A stretch of 64,000 nucleotides of DNA, from IMG/VR virus record IMGVR_UViG_3300035204_001483; one strand, written 5' to 3'. Below the pieces are notes generated by a model that saw only the letters and a list, made by a program, of their open reading frames with translations, was not told the DNA's origin and did no database searches. The position numbers were made by a program, and so were the translations under genes. Of the stretch, positions 1 to 58,201 are shown in pieces. Numbering within the stretch: the first letter of the stretch is position 1; every line of letters starts with the position of its first letter. The stretch is from an uncultured virus (IMG/VR IMGVR_UViG_3300035204_001483). Its lineage: Duplodnaviria; Heunggongvirae; Uroviricota; Caudoviricetes.

Positions 1-8260
<8,260 letters not shown>

Positions 8261-8270
8261 TTCATTTTTT

Positions 8271-31451: not shown

Positions 31452-31609
31452 TCTTTCACCTCTGTTTTTTATTACACGCAGAAACAGGGTTAGATTGCTC
31501 TTCTTTTGTTTGCGGGTCTAATTTAATGCAAATAAAAACTTTAAAATATATACCTTTCGGGGATTTTTTCGTCCTTGACTTTTTTTTAGCTATATGTCAT
31601 ACTCCTTGT

Positions 31610-31813
31610 ATGAGAAAACCTAAGTTACACTTACATCTCAGAGTTCACGGAGAAGACGTCATTATTGATTACAAAAACGAAGACGTAATCTTTCCTAATA
31701 GGCCAGAAGAAGCAGACAAATTAAGATTCAACAAAATTGCCGCGATTTCTTCATACCTTAAAGAAGAAGGATTTTTAGATCATCTCCCCAACGAAGTAAT
31801 CGAAGCACCCTAA
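31610..31813 (+). CDS. Hypothetical early protein
   Basis: TTGACT (31575)-17-CATACT (31598) promoter places the start at ATG 31610. Confidence 0.6.
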   Translation: MRKPKLHLHLRVHGEDVIIDYKNEDVIFPNRPEEADKLRFNKIAAISSYLKEEGFLDHLPNEVIEAP

Positions 31814-31821
31814 ATAAGATT

Positions 31822-32028
31822 ATGAACGAACAATTACCACATTACTCACTAAGGTATGTTACATCTAAAGGTGAAGAAAAAGACTACAAAATCAGTCGCC
31901 CTTTTGACTTGTTAAAAGACGACAAAGGTCTAAACGTGGGCATCGTTGCTTATTGTTACGGCAAAGGCATACGCTCTTTTCGACACGAACGAATTCTAAA
32001 AATGGAACCGACAAAAATTCGTCTTTAA
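31822..32028 (+). CDS. Small WYL/Sm-like-fold protein
   Basis: LRYVTSKGE..AYC..IRSFRHERI resembles the WYL R(S/T)FR..RI motif. Confidence 0.5.
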   Translation: MNEQLPHYSLRYVTSKGEEKDYKISRPFDLLKDDKGLNVGIVAYCYGKGIRSFRHERILKMEPTKIRL

Positions 32029-32404
32029 TGCGACTGAAAGGTTTGGTCTCGGGGAGACTGAAAAATACCTCCCCCCCCTCGCCTCACGAATTCAATTTGA
32101 TCCGTTATTCGAAAAATAGGGCGGGCCTATTAAAATCGCAAAAAAATCGCCTAGTTCGGGAGCATGGAAGCTAAAATGAAGAGCCAGAAGGTGCCGCAGA
32201 CGATATTCCATAATGTAATGTCTTTTTTCATGTGTTTTTCTTTAAGTTTGCCACTTCGTAGAGCGCAAACCGACTAAACGGATCGGTCAAGCGAAAAAAT
32301 AGACCTTTTTTACACGAAAAGGCTTCTGAAAGCCGCAGCGGCGTTCCTAACCCCTAAAAAAAGTGTTGACAGGTCGGTATTTAGTCGATTATCCTATTCG
32401 GGAG

Positions 32405-32626
32405 ATGAAAAAACCTACTCGTTACCAAATCGGATGCCTGTATAAGGTCAAAGACCCTGATTCGCTCTGCGGTTATCAAATCGGACGTGCGAAAAGCGTA
32501 GAAAATGATGTGTGGACGCTCGAATCTTACGACGGTTCGACTTTTACCGTTCCCGCGAGTAAACTCCGCGTGGCAAAGAAGAAACAAATGAAGGAATTCA
32601 ATATAGTACGCACAGCGTACGCCTAA
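32405..32626 (+). CDS. Early cassette protein
   Basis: MKKPTRY.. starts just after the promoter; the track start lies inside the promoter. Confidence 0.7.
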   Translation: MKKPTRYQIGCLYKVKDPDSLCGYQIGRAKSVENDVWTLESYDGSTFTVPASKLRVAKKKQMKEFNIVRTAYA

Positions 32627-32729
32627 AAGCGTCGCTTCCGACCCAAAAGGGGTTACGGAAACCGCTGCGGTCTTCCAAACCCCTAAAAAAAGTGTTGACA
32701 GACTGATATTTTGGCTCTAGGATTCTCCC

Positions 32730-32939
32730 ATGAGTGAAACCTACGAACCTAATTCAGAAACCCCACTTAGCGCGAGCCTTGACGCGAAGCTTGACGCCGA
32801 ATTCGACGCCAGCACCATAAACTTGTTTAAAGCGCAAGTGGATGTGCTCGCTGACGAACATTTCACCGTCATCGATGAACTCTGTTACGAGGAAAACGAA
32901 AACGAAGACAGCTTCATGGATGGGCTCCGTGAAGAGTAA
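32730..32939 (+). CDS. Acidic MSETY-family early peptide
   Basis: Leaderless start; LDAK..EFDAST(I/L)NLF shared with 33636..33824. Confidence 0.75.
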   Translation: MSETYEPNSETPLSASLDAKLDAEFDASTINLFKAQVDVLADEHFTVIDELCYEENENEDSFMDGLREE

Positions 32940-33031
32940 TAACACATAAGGGGTTCGTCACCCCGCTGCGCGTTTCGTAACCCCTAAAATAATGCTTGAC
33001 GAATCGATATTTCCAAGCTACTATTTTCCCC

Positions 33032-33192
33032 AGTTAAGCGATGGCTGACTGGTTCCCGCCTAGAATTATCGCGGCACCGCCCCTCGTATGTCGTCGGGTG
33101 TAGATGCGAAAAAGTGCCTTAAGAACGCGGCCCAACATCGCTTTGGCTTCGCCTTCCCTAATGGTGGCGGTTCGACTCCGTGAGAACCATTA
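33032..33192 (+). ncRNA. Putative structured ncRNA occupying one cassette
   Basis: Promoter 32996/33019 with AGT instead of ATG at the usual start. Stems AAGCGATG/CATCGCTT, GGCAC/GTGCC, TAATGGT/ACCATTA; T-loop GGTTCGACTCC at 33169-33179. Confidence 0.5.
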
Positions 33193-33275
33193 AGGGGTAG
33201 CGCGAAGCGCAGCGGCTTTTCGAACCCCTAAAATGATGCTTGACAAATTGGTATTTGACAAGTATTATTCTCTAC

Positions 33276-33347
33276 ATGGAACCGATAGCAGGAATCCTAT
33301 TCGCGTACGTTATGACTCGCCTCGTGTATGGGTCTTTTAACAACTAA
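33276..33347 (+). CDS. 23-aa hydrophobic peptide MEPIAGILFAYVMTRLVYGSFNN
   Basis: Leaderless ATG after TTGACA-17-TATTAT. Confidence 0.55.
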   Translation: MEPIAGILFAYVMTRLVYGSFNN

Positions 33348-33362
33348 AAAAACCTACTAAAT

Positions 33363-33461
33363 ATGAAAAAAATTAATTGGGATATGTTTCTCGCAGCCTT
33401 TCAAACTGGCTTTATTCTTACCGCACTAGGCTTTGCCTTAATCGCCTTAGCATTAACGTAG
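33363..33461 (+). CDS. 32-aa membrane peptide MKKINWDMFLAAFQTGFILTALGFALIALALT
   Basis: Follows AAACCTACTAA box; one TM-like segment. Confidence 0.55.
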   Translation: MKKINWDMFLAAFQTGFILTALGFALIALALT

Positions 33462-33635
33462 TCCGTACTGCGTAATTTTTTTGAAATGAAAAAAAAGTTA
33501 CCCCCCTCCCCCCCTGTCGAATAAATACGGGGGGGATACGGGGGAGTAGCATAAGGGGTCACTGAAGCCGCAGCGCGTTTCGTAACCCCTAAAATAATTC
33601 TTGACGGATGGGTATTTATGCCGTAAGTTTCTCCC

Positions 33636-33824
33636 ATGAGTGAAACCTACGACCACCATAATCCTAACCTGGACGCCAAGTGTGACTTGGAGTTCGACGC
33701 CAGCACCCTCAACCTGTTTGAAGAGACCATCCAAGTGATGACTCTCGAAGGTGTGGAAGAAACCCCCGACGAACTCGAAGTAGTGCCATTCCGTCATTAC
33801 TACGATGAGCTTTTTGATGAATAG
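33636..33824 (+). CDS. Acidic MSETY-family early peptide
   Basis: Leaderless start; paralog of 32730..32939. Confidence 0.75.
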   Translation: MSETYDHHNPNLDAKCDLEFDASTLNLFEETIQVMTLEGVEETPDELEVVPFRHYYDELFDE

Positions 33825-33927
33825 CTAACACGCTCCAGACCCGAAGGGGTCACTGGGGCCGCTGCGCGTTTCGTAACCCCTAAAATAATGCTTGACGAAT
33901 CGATATTTCAGCCGTACTATTTCCCCA

Positions 33928-34194
33928 ATGAATGACCTACTGTTCAACCTTGTCCGTTTCTTTGTTCGCCGCTCTCAAGTCCTGCGCCCTGTGGTGCGTG
34001 CAGTCATGCCGCATGAGTGGCAGTGGTCTTTCAGTAGCTGGGTCTTTAGCCGTTCTCATGGCCCTGCCCACAGGTGGCCCAACTCTCGTTGGGTTAACCT
34101 CGTGTGCCACCGCCTTTACTGGCTCACCAATCTCAGGGGCGAAGACCCCACATATGGGTGGTGGTGGCGAGCTAAACGACGATTAGGTTTTTAA
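33928..34194 (+). CDS. Trp/Arg-rich early cassette protein
   Basis: Leaderless ATG; the stop codon overlaps the next element. Confidence 0.65.
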   Translation: MNDLLFNLVRFFVRRSQVLRPVVRAVMPHEWQWSFSSWVFSRSHGPAHRWPNSRWVNLVCHRLYWLTNLRGEDPTYGWWWRAKRRLGF

Positions 34195-34276
34195 GGGGTT
34201 AGTCACCCCGCTGCGCGTTTCGTAACCCCTAAAATAATGCTTGACGAATCGATATTTAAGCCGTACTATTCTCCCA

Positions 34277-34378
34277 ATGAACGACGACTTCAGAGATATT
34301 TACTTTGTTCTTATTGTCGGTATCGTATCATTTGTGGTGATACTAGCAACGGGCATTTACATCGAATCTATATCATGA
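34277..34378 (+). CDS. 33-aa membrane peptide MNDDFRDIYFVLIVGIVSFVVILATGIYIESIS
   Basis: Leaderless ATG; ATGA-coupled to 34375. Confidence 0.6.
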   Translation: MNDDFRDIYFVLIVGIVSFVVILATGIYIESIS

Positions 34379-34539
34379 AAAATAAAAACCTAACACGTAA
34401 AGAAATCCAGCAACTCAACGAACAAGATGCTAAAGTTAAGTGGTATCTTGAATTAACCATTGCGGCGTGCTTGGGTGCGGCCCTTGCTTTGAGCTTTGTA
34501 GTAGCTCACTGTATGCTCACCACTGAATGGACTTGGTAA
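34375..34539 (+). CDS. 54-aa membrane peptide
   Basis: ATGA overlap; TM-like C-terminal segment. Confidence 0.6.
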   Translation: MKNKNLTRKEIQQLNEQDAKVKWYLELTIAACLGAALALSFVVAHCMLTTEWTW

Positions 34540-34630
34540 AAGTGTGAAAGGGGTTCGCCACCCCGCTGCGCGTTTCGTAACCCCTACGATTCTGCTTGAC
34601 GGATCGATATTTAAGCCGTACTATTTCCCC

Positions 34631-34891
34631 ATGAGCAAGGTCAGAATGAACGTAGTTGGAACCACTAGGGAAATGAACATGGCAGCAGCCCAGTGCTGTG
34701 AGACATTCAATAAAGCCGTTATGAAATTTCGGGCTTTACAGTACGCTAATGACATGGGTACGGGCGGGCCTGATTTTGATGAATTAGAGAAATTCTTTAT
34801 CGAAAAGCAAGGATTATACGATTACCTAGAAAAGGGGTTCAATGTAGCGTGTGCCTCTGACCAAGAGGCTGGAGTAATCCCAAAGAAATAA
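34631..34891 (+). CDS. Early cassette protein
   Basis: Leaderless ATG; the stop codon overlaps the next element. Confidence 0.7.
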   Translation: MSKVRMNVVGTTREMNMAAAQCCETFNKAVMKFRALQYANDMGTGGPDFDELEKFFIEKQGLYDYLEKGFNVACASDQEAGVIPKK

Positions 34892-34972
34892 GGGGTTCAT
34901 AACCCCGCTGCGCGTTTCGTAACCCCTACGATTCTTCTTGACGAATCGATATTTAAGCCGTACTATTTCCCT

Positions 34973-35119
34973 ATGAGTATTGACCCTTATAGCGAGATGA
35001 CCTCCGAAGACCACGACGACATGTGTGCATGGTTCGATGACATGCGGCTCGATGAGCCTGTGTGTGATGATCCTGGTCTCCGGTGCAACTGTGAAGACTA
35101 CCCATGCTGTGGTCACTAA
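34973..35119 (+). CDS. 48-aa acidic peptide ending RCNCEDYPCCGH
   Basis: Leaderless ATG; paralog of 36388..36540; not in the ORF track. Confidence 0.75.
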   Translation: MSIDPYSEMTSEDHDDMCAWFDDMRLDEPVCDDPGLRCNCEDYPCCGH

Positions 35120-35178
35120 AGGGGTTCGCCACCCCGCAGCGGCCCCCGCAACCCCTTTGGGTTACGAGGACGCTGTGC

Positions 35179-35478
35179 CTACTGTATTTGTAATTGAGAA
35201 GGCGGGTTTGTAGCTAACCCCACTGGCAGCGGTGGCAATGGCGGAAGGCTCATTTTTACCGTTTGAGGGATAGGGGGAGCAATCGGAATCGCTACCACAC
35301 GAGCCTCTTCAAAAGAGAGTCGGAGGATAGGCATCGCAGCCTTGATTTGATAAAGGCGATAGGCTTCAGCCTTCGCCTTCTCATGAGTCACGCCCAATTT
35401 TTTTTGGGCTTTGATGTGGTTGGTTACTTGCGCGGCCTTGACCGCGTTACGAGCTTGATAAGTTTTGTAGGTCTTCAT
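35179..35478 (-). CDS. Early cassette protein with Pro-rich tail (inverted cassette)
   Basis: Minus promoter TTGACA (35517)-17-TACATT; start MKTYKTY. Confidence 0.65.
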   Translation of the reverse strand: MKTYKTYQARNAVKAAQVTNHIKAQKKLGVTHEKAKAEAYRLYQIKAAMPILRLSFEEARVVAIPIAPPIPQTVKMSLPPLPPLPVGLATNPPSQLQIQ

Positions 35479-35584
35479 TACGAGAAAGAATGTACAAGAA
35501 AAAGAGTTAACTGTCAAGGGAATTCGTAAGCCGCAGCGGCCCCTGCAACCCCTTCGGGTCGCAAGGGTGAGATGATATTTACAC

Positions 35585-35968
35585 TTAACAAGGGTCATAT
35601 TCTGGCACGCCCGCCTCCTGGACTTCCTCACTAAACGAACGGTCATTGCCTACGATTTCGCGAATTTCCTTTTCCACAAACGCCCGAAAGCCTTTATCCT
35701 GGTCGCAGTAACTCCATTCAATCTGCCCCAGGTCTATCCACTTGCCGCCCATGTTGGCTGAAACGTTAAAATGAAAAATGCTTATATCCTCAATTGCAAT
35801 GTCGGTCAATTCCATACCGACCCGATGGGTGGCTGGCCCTTGCGGCCCCTCATAATCGAAATCGCCATTTTCCCAGCAAGGGTCATATTCAAGCTCTCCA
35901 AAAACATACAAGAAGGTTGAATCGTTCAGCTTGATTTCTACATCCTCGAATTGATAGGTGTCACTCAT
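35585..35968 (-). CDS. Acidic early cassette protein (inverted cassette)
   Basis: TTGACA-17-TACCTT, leaderless MSDTY start. Confidence 0.7.
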   Translation of the reverse strand: MSDTYQFEDVEIKLNDSTFLYVFGELEYDPCWENGDFDYEGPQGPATHRVGMELTDIAIEDISIFHFNVSANMGGKWIDLGQIEWSYCDQDKGFRAFVEKEIREIVGNDRSFSEEVQEAGVPEYDPC

Positions 35969-36085
35969 GGGAATAAGGTACACGAACCCTGTGACGTTGT
36001 CAAGGGGTTTCTTAGGCCGCTGCGCGTTTCGTAACCCCTAAAAAAGTGCTTGACGGATGGGTATTTGGGCAGTACTATTTTCCCC

Positions 36086-36301
36086 ATGAGTGAAACCTAC
36101 AACGACCCTAATTCCAACCTCGACCCCCAAAGCTCTGATGATCGCCTTGCCAAAATCGGCTCAGAGGAGTATTACGATGAGAAGCCTGATTTCTCCTCAT
36201 CTACAATAGCCTATGATGGCTTTGAAGGCTGCTGGCCTGGTGACGGGTCTGGCATGGATGACCTAGCAGACTTTAATCAGATGGAGGGCGACGACTATTA
36301 A
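36086..36301 (+). CDS. Acidic MSETY-start early peptide
   Basis: Leaderless ATG; PNSNLD resembles 33636. Confidence 0.7.
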   Translation: MSETYNDPNSNLDPQSSDDRLAKIGSEEYYDEKPDFSSSTIAYDGFEGCWPGDGSGMDDLADFNQMEGDDY

Positions 36302-36387
36302 CATAAGGGGTTCGTCACCCCGCTGCGCGTTTCGTAACCCCTACGATTCTGCTTGACGGATCGATATTTAAGCCGTACTATTTCCCC

Positions 36388-36540
36388 ATGAGTAAAGACC
36401 CTTATAGTGAAATGACCGACCAAGACCATGCCGAAATGAGCGAATGGTTTGATGAAAGAGAGCAAGCTTTTTGGGATGATGGTGGCCCAGATAACTACTC
36501 ACGTTGCAACTGCGAAGACTACCCGTGCTGTGGTCACTAA
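36388..36540 (+). CDS. 50-aa acidic peptide ending RCNCEDYPCCGH
   Basis: Leaderless ATG; paralog of 34973..35119. Confidence 0.75.
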   Translation: MSKDPYSEMTDQDHAEMSEWFDEREQAFWDDGGPDNYSRCNCEDYPCCGH

Positions 36541-36624
36541 AGGGGTTCGCCACCCCGCTGCGAGTTTCGTGGTCCCTAAAGTAGGGCTTGACAAACCGAT
36601 ATTTAGAGCGTACTATTTCCCTAC

Positions 36625-36903
36625 ATGAAACCTAGAAACATAATCAGCAACGATGGGACAGGCCCATGCGCCGAAGGCGAGCCTTTCACCGTGCATCAAC
36701 ATATCATCACTAAAAACCATTGGGAGTATTATCTAGAAGAGACAGACAGTTGCGGCTTGTCCTTTGGCTATGTGATGGGCAACGAAAACGAATGGGGCAT
36801 GGTAGACATGGAAGAGATTGAGCCTCACGTCATAGGTAGAGCAAGGGAAAATGACTTGTGGCACATCATGCCACCTGAAGGCTATCGTTGGGAAGATGAA
36901 TAA
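36625..36903 (+). CDS. DUF2958-like early protein
   Basis: WEYYLEE..FGYVMGNENEWGMVDMEEI pattern. Confidence 0.55.
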   Translation: MKPRNIISNDGTGPCAEGEPFTVHQHIITKNHWEYYLEETDSCGLSFGYVMGNENEWGMVDMEEIEPHVIGRARENDLWHIMPPEGYRWEDE

Positions 36904-36984
36904 GGGGTTTGCCACCCCGCTGCGCGTTTCGTGACCCCTACTAATACGCTTGACAAACCGATATTTATATCATACTATTTCCCC

Positions 36985-37269
36985 ATGGAAGGCGAGAAAT
37001 TCTTACTTTACTCTAATAGGAAAACCAATAGGCACGTTTTCACTTACATTAACCCTGAAGGCAAGGAGCACACCATTGATTCTGACGTGCTGACTGAAAC
37101 GTATGGTGAAGATTGGAAATGGAAGCTTTCGGGTCATCACGCTATTGTTCGGGCTGCTCACAATGATGTTGTAGATCAAGAATCATGGGATGAACTACTT
37201 CGCATCCCGTGGATGAAAGTTAATGAAATGTGGGACAAAGACGAACCACCACCGTGGATGAAGGAGTAA
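36985..37269 (+). CDS. Early cassette protein
   Basis: Leaderless ATG; the stop codon overlaps the next element. Confidence 0.65.
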   Translation: MEGEKFLLYSNRKTNRHVFTYINPEGKEHTIDSDVLTETYGEDWKWKLSGHHAIVRAAHNDVVDQESWDELLRIPWMKVNEMWDKDEPPPWMKE

Positions 37270-37331
37270 GGGGTTACTAACCCCGCTGCCGCTTCCGCAA
37301 CCCTTTCGGGTTACAGGAACGAGGCCGTATT

Positions 37332-37715
37332 TTACCACCAACAACTGTAAACTATAGTCCAGCCCTCAGACATAGCTTTTCTAGCCTTCTGAACGAACTC
37401 AAGGTCGCTATCCTTGTAGCCGTATTCCCCTTCGTAATCTTCATAACTATCATTCCCAAAGAAGAAACCTCCCGTTTCTGGTAGCTCCCTATCTAGGATG
37501 GTTTGCTCTAGGCTCTCCAAATCTTCTTCGTCGATACGCACATCAACAAGGTTGAATTCTCCTGAGCCACCCTTGCTGCGCCAGAGCTCTTCCATCCACC
37601 CTTGCAAACGATTGTGTTTGCGCCAGTAGTGAAGCTCCGTCTTAGTGGTGGTTTCGGTGCGTGAATCTGAATTGTAATCAGACTTTACTTTGTAAGCGTT
37701 TTGATCGAGTCCCAT
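37332..37715 (-). CDS. Conserved phage hypothetical protein
   Basis: MGLDQ..YWRKHNRLQGWM..GFFFG..YSCWW, a common phage family pattern. Confidence 0.7.
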   Translation of the reverse strand: MGLDQNAYKVKSDYNSDSRTETTTKTELHYWRKHNRLQGWMEELWRSKGGSGEFNLVDVRIDEEDLESLEQTILDRELPETGGFFFGNDSYEDYEGEYGYKDSDLEFVQKARKAMSEGWTIVYSCWW

Positions 37716-37813
37716 AATATTCTCCGTGGTTGTAGGTTTAACTAATGAAGATTAAAACATTTTTAAGTCTGATTGTCAAGGGAATTCGTAAACCGCTGCG
37801 GCTTCCCGCACCC

Positions 37814-38257
37814 CTACCTTGGGGGAACCAATGCCCAACACTCATGACCAACAAAGCAACGAGGTGAATTAAAAATTGGTTCTTCGTATTTCATCGTAAC
37901 AAACGTCTTATATTTATAAGGGTCGTATGTAATTCGCTCATAAACCCAATCTGCGTGTTCAGGCAAGTTAGCCATCGACTGCATATCCTTTAGCATCTTC
38001 TTCGGGCTTACCATTGGGGTTAAAGACAGAGGCGGTTGCTTTGTCCATGTGAGCCAATTGCCACGCACTACCGCATGAACGTTCTTACGCTTCTCATCAC
38101 GCACACGCTGATTGCCCTTTTCTCCAACAGCAAACTCAGCTTCTTGAATAATGATTCCGTGAACGTGTTTGCATACGAGTCTATCATGAGTGGTTCGCAC
38201 TGAGTAAACAATGCCTTCATGATGTAGGTTTCTGTAGACTTCAACTCTGCTTTTCAT
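37814..38257 (-). CDS. Conserved phage hypothetical protein
   Basis: VYRNLH..RVRDEKRKNVHA..YDPYK pattern. Confidence 0.7.
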   Translation of the reverse strand: MKSRVEVYRNLHHEGIVYSVRTTHDRLVCKHVHGIIIQEAEFAVGEKGNQRVRDEKRKNVHAVVRGNWLTWTKQPPLSLTPMVSPKKMLKDMQSMANLPEHADWVYERITYDPYKYKTFVTMKYEEPIFNSPRCFVGHECWALVPPR

Positions 38258-38259
38258 AA

Positions 38260-38709
38260 TTACTCCGAAAGTGAAATTTCGTGATCTGATTCAGGGATGT
38301 TTACCTTTAAGATGTTTTCTTCCCACCTCTGGTTTTCGAGCATTTCAGTAAGAGCTTTCGCTACATCTTTTTCAGTAACGTGAGACAAATCCTCTTTGGG
38401 TGCGTTACCCAATACCTCTTCCCACGGGACATTGATACGCCACCCGATTGGTAAACACTCATGCCATACACTTGCCACCGTAGGACGCAAAATAGAAACG
38501 TAGTCACCCACCATCATTGAGCGGACTTCGAGCTTCTTAAACAAGTCACACTCTTTACCACTCCCGTTATTCCAACCCTCCCACACTGCATCGAGAATAT
38601 CATGGTCTGTGTACTTGTAACCTACCGAATTTTCTTCTGGGTAGTCCAACCAGAACTTTTTACATTGCTTCTCGGTCATGTCCCGATATTGGATATTAAC
38701 TCTGATCAT
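38260..38709 (-). CDS. YodL-like protein
   Basis: RSMMVGDYV motif; start re-placed after the AAGGAGG SD. Confidence 0.5.
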   Translation of the reverse strand: MIRVNIQYRDMTEKQCKKFWLDYPEENSVGYKYTDHDILDAVWEGWNNGSGKECDLFKKLEVRSMMVGDYVSILRPTVASVWHECLPIGWRINVPWEEVLGNAPKEDLSHVTEKDVAKALTEMLENQRWEENILKVNIPESDHEISLSE

Positions 38710-38818
38710 GTTCCTCCTTATGCTTAGGTTTACGGACGTAAGAGCCTTTGCCCTTCTTAACTCGGTGAACGCGAGAGGCACTGTTCATGTATCCTTCCTT
38801 ACTTTTCCTCGCCTTCAT
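38696..38818 (-). CDS. ArfA-like peptide (40 aa)
   Basis: MKARKSKEGYMNSASRVHRVKKGKGSYVRKPKHKEEHDQS contains the ArfA KKGKGSYxRKxKH motif; leaderless after TTGACA-17-TACTTT. Confidence 0.7.
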   Translation of the reverse strand: MKARKSKEGYMNSASRVHRVKKGKGSYVRKPKHKEEHDQS

Positions 38819-38914
38819 GTGGATAAAGTACACGAAAAAAGTCTAACTGTCAAGGGAATTCGTAAGCCGCAGCGGCTCCCGCAACCCCTTCGGGCTGCGA
38901 GAGTAGGGGGTTAT

Positions 38915-39169
38915 TTAATAACCTCGCCTCCCATTTGGGTTAGCCTTATCATACTGAGGCTTAAGGCTTGAAGGTAAGGTATTAAGGATCGAATATATCT
39001 CATTCAAACGATCATGTGTCTGTTGAAGCAAGCCAACCGTAGACCTAAATCTCTTGACGCTATCTTCCGTTAGGTTAATCCCGTTAATTAGGTTCTCCAT
39101 CTGATCAGAAAGATCAGAGGCTTGTTTGGTTAGTTCGATTACGTCTGTTGTAGGTTTCTTTTCGCTCAT
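38915..39169 (-). CDS. Coiled-coil early protein
   Basis: Own promoter TTGACG-17-TAGTAT. Confidence 0.65.
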   Translation of the reverse strand: MSEKKPTTDVIELTKQASDLSDQMENLINGINLTEDSVKRFRSTVGLLQQTHDRLNEIYSILNTLPSSLKPQYDKANPNGRRGY

Positions 39170-39240
39170 AACAAATAAGATACTACCCCAAAACTAAAAG
39201 CCCGTCAACAACAAAAGGGGATGCGTAAACCGCAGCCGCT

Positions 39241-39265
39241 CCCGTAACCCCTTCGGGGTTACGGG
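39241..39265. terminator. Hairpin on the right arm of the element at 3' ends of minus-strand cassettes (terminator or processing candidate)
   Basis: CCCGTAACCCC-TTC-GGGGTTACGGG; related hairpins near 35147, 35544, 37297, 38880. No clear U-tract. Confidence 0.5.
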
Positions 39266-39282
39266 TGGGGGGAGGGGGTTAT

Positions 39283-40182
39283 TTAGTTCAGGGTCACGTC
39301 GGATTCGGTCACTACCGTGTCAGTCGGAACCGCGACAACAAGCCTATTTAACTTGTCAGAGTTTTCCGCAGCACCGCGCAACCGCCGCAGGACGTTGGTG
39401 CTAACGGTGTTGGCGTACTCGAAACGGTTGGGGCTAACCTCATGGGTGAGGTGTTGAGTGGCTGCATTGTAGAGCGTCCACAAGTTGCGAGCCTCGTCCT
39501 CCTCATGGGTTGGGTTTTCCCAAATCTTAAGGATGCCATCCTTCACCACGTTAGACAGTACCTTGGACTTGTTCAACTGGTTGAGGATGTTGCGGCCCTG
39601 CTCCTGCGAGATGTCACGCTCGCCCAATACGCTGAAGCCTTGCGCGGCTTTGTGGAAACTTCCGGTAGCCTTGTCGAGAGCATCCCCGATGAAACCGATT
39701 TCCACGTTACTGCTATGCTTGCGAGTCATGCCAAACTCTTTTTCCATTGTGGTCATGCCGTTAAGGCAAACCAACCGCACCATGCCAAGCGCGAAGGATA
39801 CGCGCAGGGAACGGTCAAAAGAGTTTTGCAAGGTAAGACGCATTCCCATCTCCATGCCCTTGGTGCGATCCTCGCGCCGTGTAGCAATAGCCGTTTCATT
39901 CTCGAAGTCGTACTGCGCGAACATACGTTCACCGCGACCCGCCACGACAACCTGACGATTGGTTGGAGTCATCCCGCGAGACTCGAAAGCTTCCTCTGCA
40001 TTACCGATTAAATCGGCATTCTGTACAAAGCCGTACTGCTCCGTACCCCAGCCAAGCTCCTCGCCCGTGTCAGTGCGAACGTGCGCGTACACGCGAGATT
40101 TTTTGTTGGTAGTGGACACGGTGAGCGGAACACGCTCTACAGTGAAGTCGAAATCGGAGGTTTGAATAGTGTTTCTGGCCAT
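39283..40182 (-). CDS. DUF932-family protein
   Basis: Y..VQN, LQNSFDRS, RLVCLNG, KH, NLWTLYNAATQHLTH. Confidence 0.8.
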   Translation of the reverse strand: MARNTIQTSDFDFTVERVPLTVSTTNKKSRVYAHVRTDTGEELGWGTEQYGFVQNADLIGNAEEAFESRGMTPTNRQVVVAGRGERMFAQYDFENETAIATRREDRTKGMEMGMRLTLQNSFDRSLRVSFALGMVRLVCLNGMTTMEKEFGMTRKHSSNVEIGFIGDALDKATGSFHKAAQGFSVLGERDISQEQGRNILNQLNKSKVLSNVVKDGILKIWENPTHEEDEARNLWTLYNAATQHLTHEVSPNRFEYANTVSTNVLRRLRGAAENSDKLNRLVVAVPTDTVVTESDVTLN

Positions 40183-40635
40183 GATTAGGTTTTCTTTCTT
40201 GGGTTTAGGGTTCGTCTAACTGGTAAAGATTAAACCATATATCGGATTAAGTGTCAAACCTTTTTTCACCTCACTGGATAGATTCTTTTCCCCCCCCCTA
40301 ACCCCTTGCGAAGCAAGGGGTTGCGTAGGCCGCTGCGGCCTCACGAGCCCCTATACAATGAGACTTAACCCAATGCCCTTAATTGTTAGAGTTATTTAAC
40401 TATATTTAATTTGCCAAAAATTGCTGTATTTCACTGTTATTCTACCCCAGAGTTTCTTATATAAGGGGGATTTCTCCGATGAGAAAATGGGGGTATTTAA
40501 GAAATTGCGTTGGTTAGAATGATTACGGGCAATATGCCTTTCCGAAAACTCCTCCCGCTTAACTTCTAGAGAGCAAAATGATAAAACCTCTCTAGCTAAT
40601 AAGCATCATTCTTTACGATGCCAACGCTCACCGTT

Positions 40636-40860
40636 TTATGATGGAGTGTCTGTAGGCAAATTTTCCTCGACGATTTCCAGCTTCGCAACCGTATTTCCGT
40701 TTGCGTCTTGAGCGGTAACAAAGTCACCAACATCAACAGCCATTATGCGTCCCGCGTTATCAACAAGGCGTTCTAGTACATTTTGTATTTCAAACAGACG
40801 CTCTGAAGGATTGTTGCCAAAAGCGTCATTGCCTAGTTCGATTTCGATTTTCGCTTTCAT
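40636..40860 (-). CDS. Conserved phage hypothetical protein
   Basis: IEIELGNDAF..DANGNTV pattern; leaderless promoter at 40896. Confidence 0.65.
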   Translation of the reverse strand: MKAKIEIELGNDAFGNNPSERLFEIQNVLERLVDNAGRIMAVDVGDFVTAQDANGNTVAKLEIVEENLPTDTPS

Positions 40861-40885
40861 TGGGTATAACCTAACACACGAAACG

Positions 40886-41134
40886 CTAGTTGTCAAGAGG
40901 TTTCTTATGTCTTTCAACTACGTCTGCTACCTGCTCGCCCTTCTCGTAGTCAGGTAGCTTAACAACGTACATGGAGTCTCTATCTCTTAACGTATAATTG
41001 TATTCCGTGTGTTTTAATGTCACACTATTCCTTCCACCAGACAGACGCGCAGATTGAATAGCCTCCTCCTCAGAGTTAGCGTCTACGATATAAGTAGATG
41101 ACCACATTTCAGTTGTTATTACTTTATACTTCAT
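40886..41134 (-). CDS. DpnD/PcfM-like small protein
   Basis: YKV..IVDANSEEEAI. Confidence 0.5.
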   Translation of the reverse strand: MKYKVITTEMWSSTYIVDANSEEEAIQSARLSGGRNSVTLKHTEYNYTLRDRDSMYVVKLPDYEKGEQVADVVERHKKPLDN

Positions 41135-41137
41135 AAT

Positions 41138-41296
41138 TTAATCCTCGTAGATTTCCTTGTAGCGTTCTTCAATGTCTGCGTCAGGCATCTGATTGAACCC
41201 CAAGACTCCATCCATTAACATCTCACGAATGTCTCTATCTCCAACCTGTTCAAATACAGATTCCATTAAGCGTTCTCTTTTTTCGTCAATAGTCAT
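41138..41296 (-). CDS. 52-aa acidic hypothetical protein
   Basis: Read by hand; fills the gap in the operon. Confidence 0.55.
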   Translation of the reverse strand: MTIDEKRERLMESVFEQVGDRDIREMLMDGVLGFNQMPDADIEERYKEIYED

Positions 41297-41299
41297 AAT

Positions 41300-41476
41300 T
41301 TAATGCTCCAATACGTCAAACTTTGTTTCGTCGTCTAGGGTATAAGCATACTCTGTGTCTTTCCCGTAATCGCCTTCACCATTTTTAGCGGCAGCAATCG
41401 CTTCATTCTTATTCTCCGCTTCCACCACAACGTATTGCCAATGGACTTCGGGTATTCTAACTGTGAATGTTTTCAT
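41300..41476 (-). CDS. DpnD/PcfM-like small protein (58 aa)
   Basis: MKTFTVRIPEVHWQYVVVEAENKNEAI; read by hand. Confidence 0.55.
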   Translation of the reverse strand: MKTFTVRIPEVHWQYVVVEAENKNEAIAAAKNGEGDYGKDTEYAYTLDDETKFDVLEH

Positions 41477-41653
41477 TTAGTCCTCCAATTTCTTAAAGTT
41501 GTCTACTACGATTTGGCAGAGAGCATCCGCGTTTTCCTTATAACCTCCAGCGGCTTCTACATAGCAGATGATGTCCTCCTGCATTTGTTCTCTTACCTCC
41601 GCAAACTTTTCGGGGTAAACCTTCTTGTATCCTCCTCTGTGTATAATTTTCAT
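41477..41653 (-). CDS. Hypothetical protein
   Basis: MKIIHRGG..LCQIVVDNFKKL; packed in the operon. Confidence 0.55.
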   Translation of the reverse strand: MKIIHRGGYKKVYPEKFAEVREQMQEDIICYVEAAGGYKENADALCQIVVDNFKKLED

Positions 41654-41655
41654 AC

Positions 41656-41859
41656 TTAAATCCAATCTTGCTTTGAGTCTCCGCTGATACCATGCCTCTG
41701 GCATAAATCGTCCCACTCCATACTGTTATAGGTTGAGTTGCGAGATTGAGTATCAACCACCATTTCTTTTAGATGGTTTGTGAGTTCGCCTATGTCCTCG
41801 AATTGAATTCTGACGTACTTATCGGTAGATTGCCTTGGAGGTTTTCTTGTAGGTTTCAT
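41656..41859 (-). CDS. Early protein
   Basis: Leaderless MKPTRKP after TTGACA-17-TATAGT. Confidence 0.6.
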   Translation of the reverse strand: MKPTRKPPRQSTDKYVRIQFEDIGELTNHLKEMVVDTQSRNSTYNSMEWDDLCQRHGISGDSKQDWI

Positions 41860-41941
41860 GTAAAGACTATAGCCCACATTGGACTTTGTGTCAAGGACAA
41901 AAGGGGTTAAGGAAAACGCAGCGGCCTCATCATCCCCATTG

Positions 41942-42505
41942 CTACGGGCGTTTACGTGTCAGAGTTATTTTGCACTTATTGCATCGGTATGTGCGCCCCT
42001 TCTTCATCCTGTTATGAATTGTCGTGGATATAGTATGAGAAGGATTCGGACACCCGCAGTAATATTTCCATCGTTTCTGTTTCTTTCCTCCCGCATTCGT
42101 CGTATCATAATTGTGACACCTATTCGGTTTCAGACCGAGATGACGCATTACTTTTTTCCAATCGCGTCCGTGGGCGGTAGGCTTTTCAATTCTTCTTAGA
42201 CTATAGAGTTTGTCCGTCAAGATGTGTGCAAACTCGTGGCCGACTGTTTGCTTTATGAAATGCTCCACGTTTTCTTTTAGCAAAACGTAATTTATTTCAA
42301 TGATATTTCTATAGCTGTTCGCGGTTCCTGCCCTATTTCCTTTTAGACTATAACGTAGATCGGGCGGTTCCATTGTTATTCCCCAATGCTTTTCGGCATA
42401 GTCATGTAGTTCTCCAATTCTATCTTCGCAACGCGCTTGCAATTCTGCGGTGGTGGGAACAAGTAAACCCGACTCTTTTTTTTCGAATGATTCTATTATT
42501 ATCAT
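41942..42505 (-). CDS. SprT-like zinc metalloprotease
   Basis: RAGTA, HEFAH, HGRDWK, YYCGC..YRCNKC. Confidence 0.88.
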   Translation of the reverse strand: MIIIESFEKKESGLLVPTTAELQARCEDRIGELHDYAEKHWGITMEPPDLRYSLKGNRAGTANSYRNIIEINYVLLKENVEHFIKQTVGHEFAHILTDKLYSLRRIEKPTAHGRDWKKVMRHLGLKPNRCHNYDTTNAGGKKQKRWKYYCGCPNPSHTISTTIHNRMKKGRTYRCNKCKITLTRKRP

Positions 42506-42575
42506 TTTCTTTTTTTGGGGTTTCTTATGGCGTCAACGAGAATGTAAAGTAGTAAAAAGGTTACTATCGCAGACA

Positions 42576-43367
42576 CTAAGCCACCTCCATTTCTTTGCGT
42601 TTGCTGTACCCGTTCCAGCCTCTGCGTTTTAGTTCTTGAATTGCTTGGCTTGCTGCGCTGCCCTTTGGCTGTGTGCCATGAATGAGTAGAGCAAAATTCT
42701 TTTTTCCAAATGCTGCATGGTAATCATCATGGTCAATCTCAAAACCCATTGCGTCGGCTTCTTCTTCACTATAAACAACCTCGGCATACTTTAGACCATG
42801 CTCCACAATAAGCGCGTCATGCTTGCCGCCGAAAGATGCGGTCAGTACAAAGTTTGAAGGAATAGAATCAAAACGATGTACCCAAAAGTTCAAGCTCTTT
42901 GTGTACGCATAAAAATGCTTGTTGGGGTTACGTCGTGCAACTTCCATCCACGCATCAAAATAAACCTGTGAAAAGAAATCACCACCCACATGGACACGCA
43001 TGATGTCAAACTTTTTGGGAAGCATCGACTCTAGTAAATCGGCAACCTCTTTTGCCTGATTCTTTTTGTATCGCCATGCGTTGAGGAGAACGTTTTTGAT
43101 AGCCTCAAAATTACGCCACACCATTGCGCGTGTGTTTTTATACTGTGATTCGCTACTCGCCGCAAAGCAACGAAATGCTGTGTGTGGGCCGTCTGTAATC
43201 TTGCCCGTTGTCCTGTCCGCTTTAGACAAGCAATCTTTTGCTGCTGGACACGTCCACCCGCTAGGGAGGGTGAAAGATTTAATAGTTAAACCGAGCCGCT
43301 TCGCCATCGCAATTAACTTTGCGTTAGCTTGGGAAAAGGTTAGAGCTTGGGGTTGTGTAGGTTTCAT
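42576..43367 (-). CDS. Phage gp88-like protein
   Basis: SFTLPSGWTCP..C..CFA, RVHVGGDFFS, FYAYTKS. Confidence 0.7.
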   Translation of the reverse strand: MKPTQPQALTFSQANAKLIAMAKRLGLTIKSFTLPSGWTCPAAKDCLSKADRTTGKITDGPHTAFRCFAASSESQYKNTRAMVWRNFEAIKNVLLNAWRYKKNQAKEVADLLESMLPKKFDIMRVHVGGDFFSQVYFDAWMEVARRNPNKHFYAYTKSLNFWVHRFDSIPSNFVLTASFGGKHDALIVEHGLKYAEVVYSEEEADAMGFEIDHDDYHAAFGKKNFALLIHGTQPKGSAASQAIQELKRRGWNGYSKRKEMEVA

Positions 43368-43406
43368 GATGTAAATATAGCAGGTTTTACTTAGGTTGTC
43401 AAGTCT

Positions 43407-43853
43407 TTACTGAAAGTTGTAAAATCTTTCGCTGGTTTGTTTCCACTCTTCTTCATCGTTCCACACGCCACCAGTTTTCATAGTGCCATGCCCACACATT
43501 TCGCTACTGAGGGAAAGCCGGTAAGCTCCCCCATGCTGCACGGAAATAAACGTTTCGTGAATCATGTTGTTGAATCTAAGTCGCGCAAGTAAGCCAGCGT
43601 AACGTCTGACCTTTTCTCTTAGCGTGTTTCCGTGCTTGCCTAAGAAGTAAGCAAGGGAGGAGTTATAAAAGTAATTCCTTATGTCTTCCTCCGTTGTCCA
43701 GATGTAAGCAAACCTTTCAGACATATAATTCAACTCACCGTTGTACGCTCCGTGGTTGTACCAACTGTAATCCTGTGAAATGATTTTTTGGGGGTCGTCC
43801 GATTCGATACCGACTGCCCAACTGTTTCCGAGTGGTTGATAGAATAGCTTCAT
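43407..43853 (-). CDS. Early hypothetical protein
   Basis: Leaderless ATG after the promoter next to the last element. Confidence 0.65.
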   Translation of the reverse strand: MKLFYQPLGNSWAVGIESDDPQKIISQDYSWYNHGAYNGELNYMSERFAYIWTTEEDIRNYFYNSSLAYFLGKHGNTLREKVRRYAGLLARLRFNNMIHETFISVQHGGAYRLSLSSEMCGHGTMKTGGVWNDEEEWKQTSERFYNFQ

Positions 43854-43972
43854 TGGGACTTAAGGTACACTAATATAACCTACGTGTCAAGAGCAAAAAG
43901 GGGTTAAGAAGGCCGCAGCGATTTTCGCAAGCCTTATCCCGAGTTAAGGTCAAAACTCTTTATTTGATATAT

Positions 43973-44317
43973 TTAGAAGTCAAAAAATTCTATTATTTGA
44001 TCACTGTTTATTTTCCAGTGCATGAAGCTTATTATTTGAGAAGTAGATGGTATTTGAGGATCGCCAAACCCATATTGGTATCCCCCTATTACCATTGAGT
44101 CTAGTTGTGCGCCGATATCAGTTTCATCTATACCGACACTGAGGGTGCGAGAAAAATATCTTACATATATTATTTTGTGTTTTGTTTCTGCTCTCCACTC
44201 ACAACTTTTTTCAGTAATTGTACCTGCTAATATATATATCTTTCTATACCCGCCAAACCTTTTGAGAACAGAGGGGGTGACAACCCTTTGCAGTCCAGAT
44301 TCTCCAGATAAGTCCAT
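43973..44317 (-). CDS. Hypothetical protein
   Basis: 114-aa ORF. Confidence 0.5.
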   Translation of the reverse strand: MDLSGESGLQRVVTPSVLKRFGGYRKIYILAGTITEKSCEWRAETKHKIIYVRYFSRTLSVGIDETDIGAQLDSMVIGGYQYGFGDPQIPSTSQIISFMHWKINSDQIIEFFDF

Positions 44318-44323
44318 GTTATA

Positions 44324-45289
44324 TTATACATGAGTTTTATCTAGTTCTACTAGGTAGTTACGCCCTTTTTGAGTGATGTTCCTGCCTTTAGTTGTGATCT
44401 CCATGAGGTCGTGACTCTGAAGAAACAATTCGTAATCACACCGTAAGGATTGAACAGTCAACTTTACTTTTGTGCCGAGTTTAGTGAGCGAAACATCTCG
44501 ACAGTCACGTAATACTCGCAGCACCCTCACCTCTTTCGGGCGTAAACCTAAAGGAGTAATGCCTAGAGTGCCAGTTAACGCTTTCCAATCCTTACGGGTA
44601 AATTTAGAAAGTTTGCCGTTGGCATCTAAATACATCTGGATATTAATTGCCATCTTTTGGGCAGCGCGTGGGTTGCCACGCAACACAGAAGCGATTTCCT
44701 CTGGTAGTCCATCTTCAAATTCTACTTCACTTAAATTAAGTAAAATGATCTCCCCCAACTCCTCATGGCTGTAATCTTCAAGGTCAACTCTATCCAACCT
44801 ATCCATGAGAGCGTGAAATACCTTATGAGGTTCGCTCGTAGCAAATAAGAAAGTCTGACGACGAAAATCAAAATCAAACGTAAACTCATCCCAACTAAAA
44901 GAATTACGGTTTTGGGGATTAGGGTTAAGAATAGAGAGCATAACCATCTCAACATCTGGAGGAATCTCGCTCGCCTCATCAAAAAGAACGGTTACGTCCC
45001 TGTCGTGAACTTTAGGAATAATTAACTCATCAAAAAATGCTTTGGTATTCTTAATGGAAGCGCAATTAACTTCGCAATACTTTTTGGGTTTATCTTCTCC
45101 GCTTTTAACTAACTCTTTTGCTAGAGCTTTAGCTATAAGTGTTTTGCCGCACCCCTTTGACGCAGTAAACATCATGTTTGGAATCAATCCTGCTTTTTCG
45201 TAGGAATCAATATAGAAGTCTAACTTTCGTTTAGCTTGCGGTTGGCCTATAATGCCATCAAATCGTGAAGAGGTGTAGGTTTCGCTCAT
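44324..45289 (-). CDS. ruvB: RuvB-like Holliday junction AAA+ ATPase
   Basis: FDGIIGQ, GCGKT, LFDE, ALMDR, RGNPRAA, LGITPLGL, TTKGR: RuvB order of motifs and length. Confidence 0.78.
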   Translation of the reverse strand: MSETYTSSRFDGIIGQPQAKRKLDFYIDSYEKAGLIPNMMFTASKGCGKTLIAKALAKELVKSGEDKPKKYCEVNCASIKNTKAFFDELIIPKVHDRDVTVLFDEASEIPPDVEMVMLSILNPNPQNRNSFSWDEFTFDFDFRRQTFLFATSEPHKVFHALMDRLDRVDLEDYSHEELGEIILLNLSEVEFEDGLPEEIASVLRGNPRAAQKMAINIQMYLDANGKLSKFTRKDWKALTGTLGITPLGLRPKEVRVLRVLRDCRDVSLTKLGTKVKLTVQSLRCDYELFLQSHDLMEITTKGRNITQKGRNYLVELDKTHV

Positions 45290-45496
45290 GTAAAAATAGT
45301 ACTATCTATCGGAAATAAAGTCAAGCACTTAATCTTTTTTTAGTCTCATCTTCGACCTTCTTGTTAAAGACTTTTGCTTCGTGAGAGTTGGAATCATCTA
45401 ATACTATAGACCTGACCTCTCCATCTAACTCATCTAAGAATTCTTGATAAACTTCTTTGTGAGTGTCCCAATAGCGAGACGATTTAAGAGTCATGA

Positions 45497-45730
45497 TTAT
45501 TTTCTGCCTTCTGCGCGACGAATGGCTTCTTTTGCGATATCATCCATTATACGCTGATCACTTTTATCGTGATAAACGTGTCTACCGCTAATAACTTCAA
45601 AATTTTCGATAATGATTTTTTGTTTCCACGGGGGCTGCTCTCCCACCACTTCATTCCACGCAACTTCGTATCTCGCTGCCATGCCTGTCGGTGGTGAGGA
45701 AGGAAGCTTCATGTCCTTTATTACACTCAT
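45497..45730 (-). CDS. Hypothetical protein
   Basis: 77-aa ORF in operon. Confidence 0.5.
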   Translation of the reverse strand: MSVIKDMKLPSSPPTGMAARYEVAWNEVVGEQPPWKQKIIIENFEVISGRHVYHDKSDQRIMDDIAKEAIRRAEGRK

Positions 45731-45731
45731 T

Positions 45732-46013
45732 TTACCACTCCGTTTCTTTTACTTCGACGCGAACCCCGTCATCTTCTAAATTCGTCGTCTGGTCGTCCTC
45801 GAACTTAGTTTCTTTAACGTTTACGGTTGGCTTGGGTTGATCCGAAACAGATGTAATATCATTGCCAACAACACCAAGGTCTACAGCCCACTTACGCGAA
45901 ACTCTAACGGTCATACTGGGGCGGAGAAGATCATTTAACTGCTGGAGGGTAACATTGCAGAAAGAGTAAGACCCCTTTTTTCTTCCGCTACCAGGCTTTC
46001 TGGTTTTCTTCAT
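45732..46013 (-). CDS. Small protein with AT-hook-like basic N-terminus
   Basis: RKPGSGRKKGS; leaderless promoter at 46048. Confidence 0.55.
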   Translation of the reverse strand: MKKTRKPGSGRKKGSYSFCNVTLQQLNDLLRPSMTVRVSRKWAVDLGVVGNDITSVSDQPKPTVNVKETKFEDDQTTNLEDDGVRVEVKETEW

Positions 46014-46154
46014 GTAAAAATAGTACTACCAATCTAACTTCGTGTCAAGATTTTCTTAAAGAAAACAAAAGAAATAAAAAGAATAATACTAATAAATAAA
46101 AATAATATATACACTGTTGTTAATACTGCCACCCACAAACCAACCACAATCTCT

Positions 46155-57790: not shown

Positions 57791-58201
57791 TGGTGGAGGC
57801 GGTGGGAGTCGAACCCACGTCTTTAAAACCGTCTGCTCAGATATACTACAAGTTTAGTCGGTGACATACTTGTTAGTTGACCACCGACAGACTAACTAAC
57901 AAGGTTGGAGGCACTTTATTTATACTAGACTCCTCACCCTTCCTAGTTTTTTTTGCTCGCTATCGACGCCCTAGCTCCTTAACGAGCATCCAGAGTAGGA
58001 CGGGGTAGAACTAAGCTACCAGCGCAGCCTCTTCGGCCCAACCGAAACGAGCGAGAATCTCGTCTGCTTCAGCCAGTGAAGGAGCTACCATGTCAACGTC
58101 ATTGTTGGCATATATGTTTTTGATAGAATTTTTAAGAGGCCAACTATCATCCTCTACTTGCAATCTTGCGTAAGGCTCCAAATCGAAACCAGTACGCCCC
58201 C
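57791..58201 (-). ncRNA. ssrA: tmRNA
   Basis: 5' GGGGGCGTACTGGTTTCGA and 3' GACGTGGGTTCGACTCCCACCGCCTCCACCA; acceptor stem with G3.U; internal tag frame 58109-58011 (ANNDVD..AALVA). Confidence 0.93.

Follow-up and report, generated by a model that had tools for sequence, protein, structure and literature searches.

The name ArfA stands for alternative ribosome-rescue factor A, a protein of beta- and gamma-proteobacteria. The bacterial arfA message is a non-stop mRNA, in which a hairpin, a terminator or an RNase III site lies before the stop codon, and it is hence repressed by trans-translation. The available text of a review confines ArfA to some beta- and gamma-proteobacteria (PMC8012679). 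In the accessible account of Demo et al. 2017 (PMC5378476), ArfA contacts RF2 through residues 25-29, which pair with the beta-sheet of RF2, and through a patch of Leu19, Leu24 and Phe25, which binds Trp319 in the RF2 switch loop. At the core of the N-terminal minidomain is Ala18; folding of this minidomain and opening of RF2 are coupled, and the A18T variant binds RF2 without release of the peptide (PMC5378476).

Phage genes annotated as ArfA are already in print, namely g10 of Citromicrobium phage vB_CbaS-RXM (PMC8953757, available text) and gp30 of pelagiphage HTVC027P, for which the available text reports early and late expression (PMC12753301). Our literature search turned up these two annotation-level mentions of a phage ArfA and no functional work on one, their supplements aside. 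ArfT of Francisella tularensis is a factor of 40 aa with a normal stop that is not tmRNA-gated and works with RF1 or RF2; its authors, in the available part of their paper, regard it as an independent family (PMC6299226).

We analyzed a short gene in an uncultured virus (IMG/VR record IMGVR_UViG_3300035204_001483), for which an original prediction had proposed an ArfA-like product. The window, which is the whole stretch of 64,000 nucleotides analyzed, is a T4-type phage region with rIIA, rIIB, a clamp-loader-like ATPase, PhoH, the large terminase and tail fibre genes, and it is present in DNA sequencing runs from marine metagenomes. At its start, an ORF of at least 2766 codons (2-8299, minus strand) runs off the window.

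Gene, promoter and cassette layout

The features of the locus are as follows.

37814..38257, minus strand: third cassette gene, 147 aa (Phage_L5_gp82, PF25735, E 1e-24; phrog_586)
38260..38709, minus strand: second cassette gene, 149 aa (no PHROG or Pfam match, no known family)
38696..38818, minus strand: ArfA-like peptide gene, ATG at 38818, 40 codons and TAA at 38698-38696 (ORF list, PF03889, hhalign, dN/dS)
38825..38853, minus strand: sigma-70-type promoter, TTGACA (38853-38848), 17 nt, TACTTT (38830-38825), 6 nt, ATG (9/12 match)
38876..38903, minus strand: 12-bp GC-rich hairpin upstream of the promoter, an inter-cassette repeat element (repeat families D4, D6 and D7)
38915..39169, minus strand: preceding cassette of one gene (84 aa), which has its own promoter (39208-39180)
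39283..40182, minus strand: DUF932 gene (PF06067, E 6.5e-16), the commonest upstream neighbour of the peptide gene

Translation of the 40-aa ORF gave MKARKSKEGYMNSASRVHRVKKGKGSYVRKPKHKEEHDQS. The 40-aa ORF with a normal stop was found exactly where the original prediction had placed it, and the 18-residue string quoted there corresponds to residues 16-33 of the peptide; the strand, which had been left unstated, is minus. An upstream GTG at 38833, giving a 45-aa form, was rejected as the true start: it lies inside the -10 hexamer, and every relative begins at ATG.

To describe the promoter, we scored sigma-70-type elements with at least 9/12 matches and a -10 hexamer ending 5-8 nt (6-7 nt in practice) before a start codon. 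Such a promoter abuts the start codon of the peptide gene in the window and in 19 of the 29 distinct related loci, and among all ATG triplets in the related loci, taken as a control, 196 of 8311 (2.4%) passed the same test. No space for a Shine-Dalgarno sequence is present between the promoter and the ATG. The promoter geometry, with the -10 hexamer ending 6 nt before the ATG and the arrangement repeated across the related loci, indicates that the peptide mRNA is probably leaderless, in agreement with the original prediction. The host-type promoter also suggests expression early in infection.

Across the window, 34 of 1946 ATG triplets passed the abutting-promoter test, and 19 of those 34 head ORFs of at least 25 codons between 31.6 and 46.1 kb. 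Most small early genes on both strands of this region (31600-46100) consist of a GC-rich hairpin, TTGAC(A/G), 17 nt, TACTAT and an ATG 6-8 nt further on. A 100-nt hairpin-plus-promoter repeat occurs in 12 copies on the plus strand (32631-36985), and further units lie on the minus strand; many of the 19 ORFs are preceded by a copy of this repeat. From this layout, leaderless mRNAs seem to be the rule for the early program of this phage. At three related loci (L014, L017 and L021), the upstream region of about 30 nt carries TGGCAC-N5-CTGCT about 12 nt before the ATG in place of the sigma-70-type promoter; judged by eye, the element looks like a sigma-54 (-24/-12) promoter, likewise without a leader.

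The peptide gene had been predicted to be the first gene of its cassette, and the arrangement bears this out: the hairpin and promoter lie directly upstream, and two more genes follow before the next hairpin-promoter unit. The hairpin at 38876-38903 (-28.5 kcal/mol, z -1.85, 10 of 200 shuffles equally good) is the probable end of the preceding transcript. The second gene has its AAGGAGG (38719-38713) and ATG (38709) inside the 3' end of the peptide gene, which it overlaps by 14 nt; its orthologue at locus L012 starts at the same Met. RNA folding of the peptide ORF gave z +0.37, with 122 of 200 shuffles as good, and no arfA-type hairpin before the stop was found in the ORF by comparison with these shuffles. 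The normal TAA stop and the absence of such a hairpin support the constitutive expression that had been proposed.

The ArfA-type tail and its phage family

In a Pfam search, the sole family matched by the 40-aa form was ArfA (PF03889), with 24.4 bits against a gathering cut-off of 25.5 and a single-protein E of 2e-5, a value that is borderline given the thousands of short ORFs in the 64-kb window. Residues 15-34 of the peptide aligned with profile positions 25-44 of 44, which is the C-terminal half only. The 45-aa form scored 24.0 bits, also below 25.5. All seven relatives first collected (see below) matched the same half, with E from 7e-6 to 1.2e-3, and one of them, P0002, was above the cut-off (25.9 bits). 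An NCBIfam search of the peptide gave no match.

Profile-profile comparison by hhalign with an alignment of 19 canonical ArfA sequences gave a probability of 96.8% and E 2.7e-10 over 23 columns only, which pair residues 14-36 of the peptide with residues 26-48 of E. coli ArfA. The six invariant columns of the canonical tail (K34, G35, K36, G37, R41 and K44 in E. coli) are all kept as K22, G23, K24, G25, R29 and K32. In a sequence search of the PDB, the peptide and a profile of 25 short-type members matched only ArfA chains (6/6 for the profile), with best E values of 0.008 and 3.1e-4, respectively, and the alignment of the peptide placed residues 15-35 on ArfA residues 27-47. The ArfA set accounted for 26 of the 30 nearest clusters in the ESM Atlas. 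Matches to PHROG families covered the tail only (residues 17-38), namely phrog_37108 (E 1.1e-4) and phrog_2701 (E 3.5e-3), both labelled 'unknown function'; E. coli ArfA itself matches phrog_37108 (E 2.7e-3). ArfA-type tails were caught by four small PHROG families altogether, all with the same label.

These sequence comparisons indicate that the resemblance to the mRNA-channel tail of ArfA is real and homologous. The original prediction, which had named an HMM search with the ArfA family as a check, thus held for the tail: the family was found at E 2e-5, but the score stayed under the cut-off and only profile positions 25-44 were covered. To call the peptide a short version of ArfA was an overstatement, as the RF2-activating N-terminal part has no aligned counterpart.

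A protein search by word index yielded the seven short relatives, and a profile built from them found 84 representative proteins at E <=1e-3, 43 of them at <=1e-10, among 1.84 billion. When IMG/VR was scanned, 78 stretches matched and 38 were confirmed, giving 34 viral loci with 29 distinct sequences. At 98% identity, the nearest relative is that of virus record G001. The short type was absent from 50,697 deposited phage records searched by tblastn with P0001, P0026 and P0058; the best leftovers were Enterococcus phages at E >=2 and a piece of Salmonella arfA, with no true relative among them. Megablast of the locus against the deposited phages gave no match either.

Among 25 short-type sequences, the median dN/dS was 0.18 and all values were below 1 in the 138 of 300 pairs with usable dS; silent sites were saturated in the remaining pairs, for which dS was unusable. 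The reading frame ends at a stop within 36-52 codons in 33 of the 34 related loci. We judged the peptide gene to be real because of family conservation, dN/dS and the profile-profile E of 2.7e-10, and not because of the single-protein E. The reading that the ORF is not a gene is ruled out by purifying selection, both on the whole ORF and on residues 2-10 (see below). The 40-codon, probably early gene is real and conserved.

The one locus outside these stop limits, L009 (454-861), and the protein P0014 have no stop after the peptide; their frame stays open across the next promoter and on into the gene that follows (136 and 105 aa, respectively). They may represent fusions; alternatively, the transcripts may end before a stop codon is reached. 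The protein P0067 (532 aa, acidic and repeat-rich) carries a complete short-type peptide at its C-terminal end (residues 491-531).

Canonical-looking N-termini were present in 3 of the 34 viral loci (L032, L033 and L035) and also in short ORFs of deposited phages of Erythrobacter (two), Caulobacter (Cr30), Roseobacter, Citromicrobium (RXM g10) and Microcystis. The canonical-like ORF of Cr30 (L044 1450-1602; region 11151-11240 of the record) lies in an unannotated gap between two hypothetical genes. Cr30 is a cultured, T4-type Caulobacter phage, and its host class is said to have no ArfA. Chromosomal ORFs of 54-87 codons with an ArfA-type tail occur in Clostridium genomes (L039-L041) and in Verrucomicrobiota MAGs (L037-L038). 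Those of Clostridium also resemble ArfA in their N-terminal pattern, and they have a Shine-Dalgarno sequence and a normal stop. These taxa fall outside the beta- and gamma-proteobacterial range of ArfA given in reviews. Pseudomonadales were considered as the host of the short type and set aside: a MAG contig carries a copy identical to L024/L025, and it may be a mis-binned phage contig.

Clustering of ORFs showed that the DUF932 gene (cluster 0) is upstream of the peptide gene in the window and in 23 of the 34 loci, and no other neighbour is constant. Downstream, neither the most frequent gene (cluster 3) nor that of the window (cluster 31) belongs to a known family, and these genes differ between loci. 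No release-factor-like or hydrolase neighbour was present among the clustered ORFs of the window and the 34 loci.

The phage tmRNA that the original prediction had paired with the peptide was confirmed by two methods.

57791..58201, minus strand: phage tmRNA gene (ARAGORN; RF00023, 148.7 bits against a gathering score of 47)

The tmRNA is of the one-piece type and lies about 19 kb from the peptide gene; its tag, as predicted by ARAGORN, is unusually long, with 32 residues ending in ALVA. Of 33 related viral records, 5 had a tmRNA score above the cut-off, most of the others being fragments, and these five include both records with a completeness of at least 90%. Searches for SmpB and for an RF-1 domain gave nothing in the five largest related records or in 55 ORFs of the window; therefore, the phage would need to use host factors, as ArfA does.

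The front end and its possible modes of action

Arg4, Gly9, Met11, Ser13, Ala14, Arg16 and His18 are kept in at least 90% of the 25 sequences, and position 10 is aromatic or Leu. The N-terminal 13 residues gave no alignment with ArfA residues 1-25 by PF03889 or hhalign: profile positions 1-24 of PF03889 were unmatched in all eight family members, and hhalign aligned nothing before residue 14. When the alignment was extended by hand in an ungapped register, the positions of ArfA Leu19, Leu24 and Phe25 were occupied by Lys, Asn and Ser in the peptide, and roughly the first 15 residues of the ArfA minidomain are absent. MAFFT placed position 10 opposite the Phe25 equivalent of the canonical-like phage ArfAs only with a 3-residue gap, so that this counterpart is suggestive, a lead and no demonstration.

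The reading that we favour, on balance and with some reserve, is that the peptide is a constitutive, minimal, release-factor-dependent ribosome-rescue factor. Host RNA polymerase would transcribe the gene early, with the transcript starting on or beside the AUG, and the leaderless mRNA would yield a basic peptide of 40 residues early in infection. The tail would dock in the vacant mRNA channel of stalled ribosomes; this is the best-supported step, to which the tail homology points. The front end (Arg4, Gly9, residue 10, Met11, Ser13, Ala14, Arg16 and His18) would sit in the A site or decoding centre, where it may attract and activate one of the class-I release factors of the host, by analogy RF2 and possibly RF1. 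The release factor would then hydrolyse the peptidyl-tRNA, and the ribosome would return to the pool. With its own stop and no internal hairpin, the gene would not be shut off by trans-translation and could work beside the phage tmRNA. The phage may benefit by recycling ribosomes from messages cut in host shut-off or by defence nucleases. We lean toward release because small factors with unrelated front ends, such as ArfT, achieve it, and because the lineage invests in tmRNA. The predicted complex of the peptide family (A3) with RF2_ECOLI had a score of 0.00, which bears on binding in neither direction, as E. coli RF2 is a stand-in and ArfA and RF2 meet on the ribosome.

A more far-reaching form of this proposal is tentative and, in our estimate, rather unlikely as a whole. 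It would make the peptides a phage-specific class in which the RF2-activating minidomain is replaced by a different basic motif of 10-13 residues that engages RF1, RF2 or both in a new way, acting constitutively beside the phage tmRNA in a take-over of rescue. Nearly all early genes of the phage are laid out for leaderless mRNAs, and leaderless mRNAs start on 70S ribosomes; peptide and tmRNA together may strip such ribosomes from degraded host messages and make them available for the leaderless phage transcripts.

The strongest competing explanation, which we regard as unlikely, is that the peptide occupies the channel and has no release activity. Bound to the decoding centre and the vacant mRNA entry channel, it would act by competition or modulation; for example, it could block the tails of host ArfA, ArfB or SmpB, keep RF2 compact and inactive, or leave vacant ribosomes parked. 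The homology is indeed limited to the tail, and the hydrophobic patch that activates RF2 has no aligned counterpart. The available description of ArfA A18T shows that binding without release is possible (PMC5378476), and therefore tail homology is no guarantee of rescue; moreover, one channel is used by SmpB, ArfA and ArfB (PMC6299226, available text). However, the tmRNA of the lineage needs this channel free for the SmpB tail, so that a constitutive blocker would oppose it, and a lytic phage has no obvious gain from freezing ribosomes early. The conserved N-terminal motif also argues for a specific A-site partner, and the constrained front end fits such a partner beyond simple channel binding.

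It is improbable that the true product is instead a 30-residue form beginning at Met11, with the SD-like AAGGAAGGA in codons 7-9 and the upstream codons serving as a 5' leader. This form has in its favour that Met11 is present in 24 of the 25 sequences and is preceded by a purine-rich, SD-like stretch (window 38713-38790, minus strand), and that a gene caller reported the near-identical relative P0002 as a 30-aa protein. Residues 2-10 alone, however, had a median dN/dS of 0.25 (usable in 128 of 300 pairs), all 25 sequences have Arg4, encoded by five different codons, and Gly9 is encoded by all four of its codons. Residues 2-10 thus evolve as protein, and therefore the protein begins at the promoter-abutting ATG and not at the internal Met11. 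This ATG is in frame and the frame is stop-free in every locus with the promoter. Both the 40-aa and the 30-aa forms could be made.

Least probable of all, and very much so, is a basic nucleic-acid-binding or other non-ribosomal peptide that shares the KGKGS-type stretch with ArfA by descent or convergence and has another target. In its favour are the shortness, strong basicity and low complexity of the peptide, a Pfam score under the cut-off and the lack of a translation-related family among the neighbouring genes. Against it, about 20 residues match position by position, with every invariant tail column kept, ArfA was the only family matched in the PDB (6/6), and hhalign against canonical ArfA gave E 2.7e-10.

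Implications and comparison with known rescue systems

With annotated phage ArfA genes already known, what is new here is a divergent, predicted leaderless and tmRNA-independent mini-ArfA subfamily of uncultured marine T4-type phages. It is a large family of still smaller phage versions, in which the ribosome-sensing tail is kept and the known activating part is not. The phages that encode these mini-ArfA peptides have a tmRNA as well, and the peptides appear to be free of tmRNA control. If active in release, they would define a minimal sequence for calling a release factor to a stop-less ribosome, and large marine phages would see to ribosome rescue on their own. Without such activity, they would be naturally occurring peptides that inhibit the rescue site, an antibiotic target.

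Compared with functional analogues, the peptide resembles BrfA of Bacillus subtilis (PMC6881298) and the C-terminal tails of SmpB and ArfB (PMC6299226), which the available texts describe as basic tails that sense the empty mRNA channel. In the Pfam search, PF03889 was the only family to match the peptide, and to that extent the peptide is unrelated in sequence to BrfA, SmpB and ArfB. Like ArfA (YhdL; PF03889; PDB 5MDV, 5MDW, 5U4I, 5H5U, 5MGP and 7OJ0), the phage peptide is small and would need host factors, and it has a basic C-terminal tail of the KGKGS type followed by R..KH. It differs from ArfA in having 40 aa, compared with 52-55 aa in the mature factor, and in that nothing in it aligns with ArfA residues 1-25, the RF2-activating minidomain. 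Its gene is also phage-borne and, as predicted, leaderless; it has its own stop and neither a hairpin nor an RNase III site, and would therefore not be tmRNA-gated.

Among phage proteins, RXM g10 and HTVC027P gp30 are, as far as the available texts describe them, like the peptide: all are encoded by phages and combine a normal stop with a PF03889-type tail. A canonical-looking N-terminus is kept by RXM g10 and by its relatives in phages of Erythrobacter, Caulobacter (Cr30), Roseobacter and Microcystis, whereas the subfamily of the window lacks one. By description, not by sequence, the peptide is also like ArfT, which in the available account likewise has 40 aa, a normal stop and a KGKGS-like basic stretch near the C terminus (PMC6299226).
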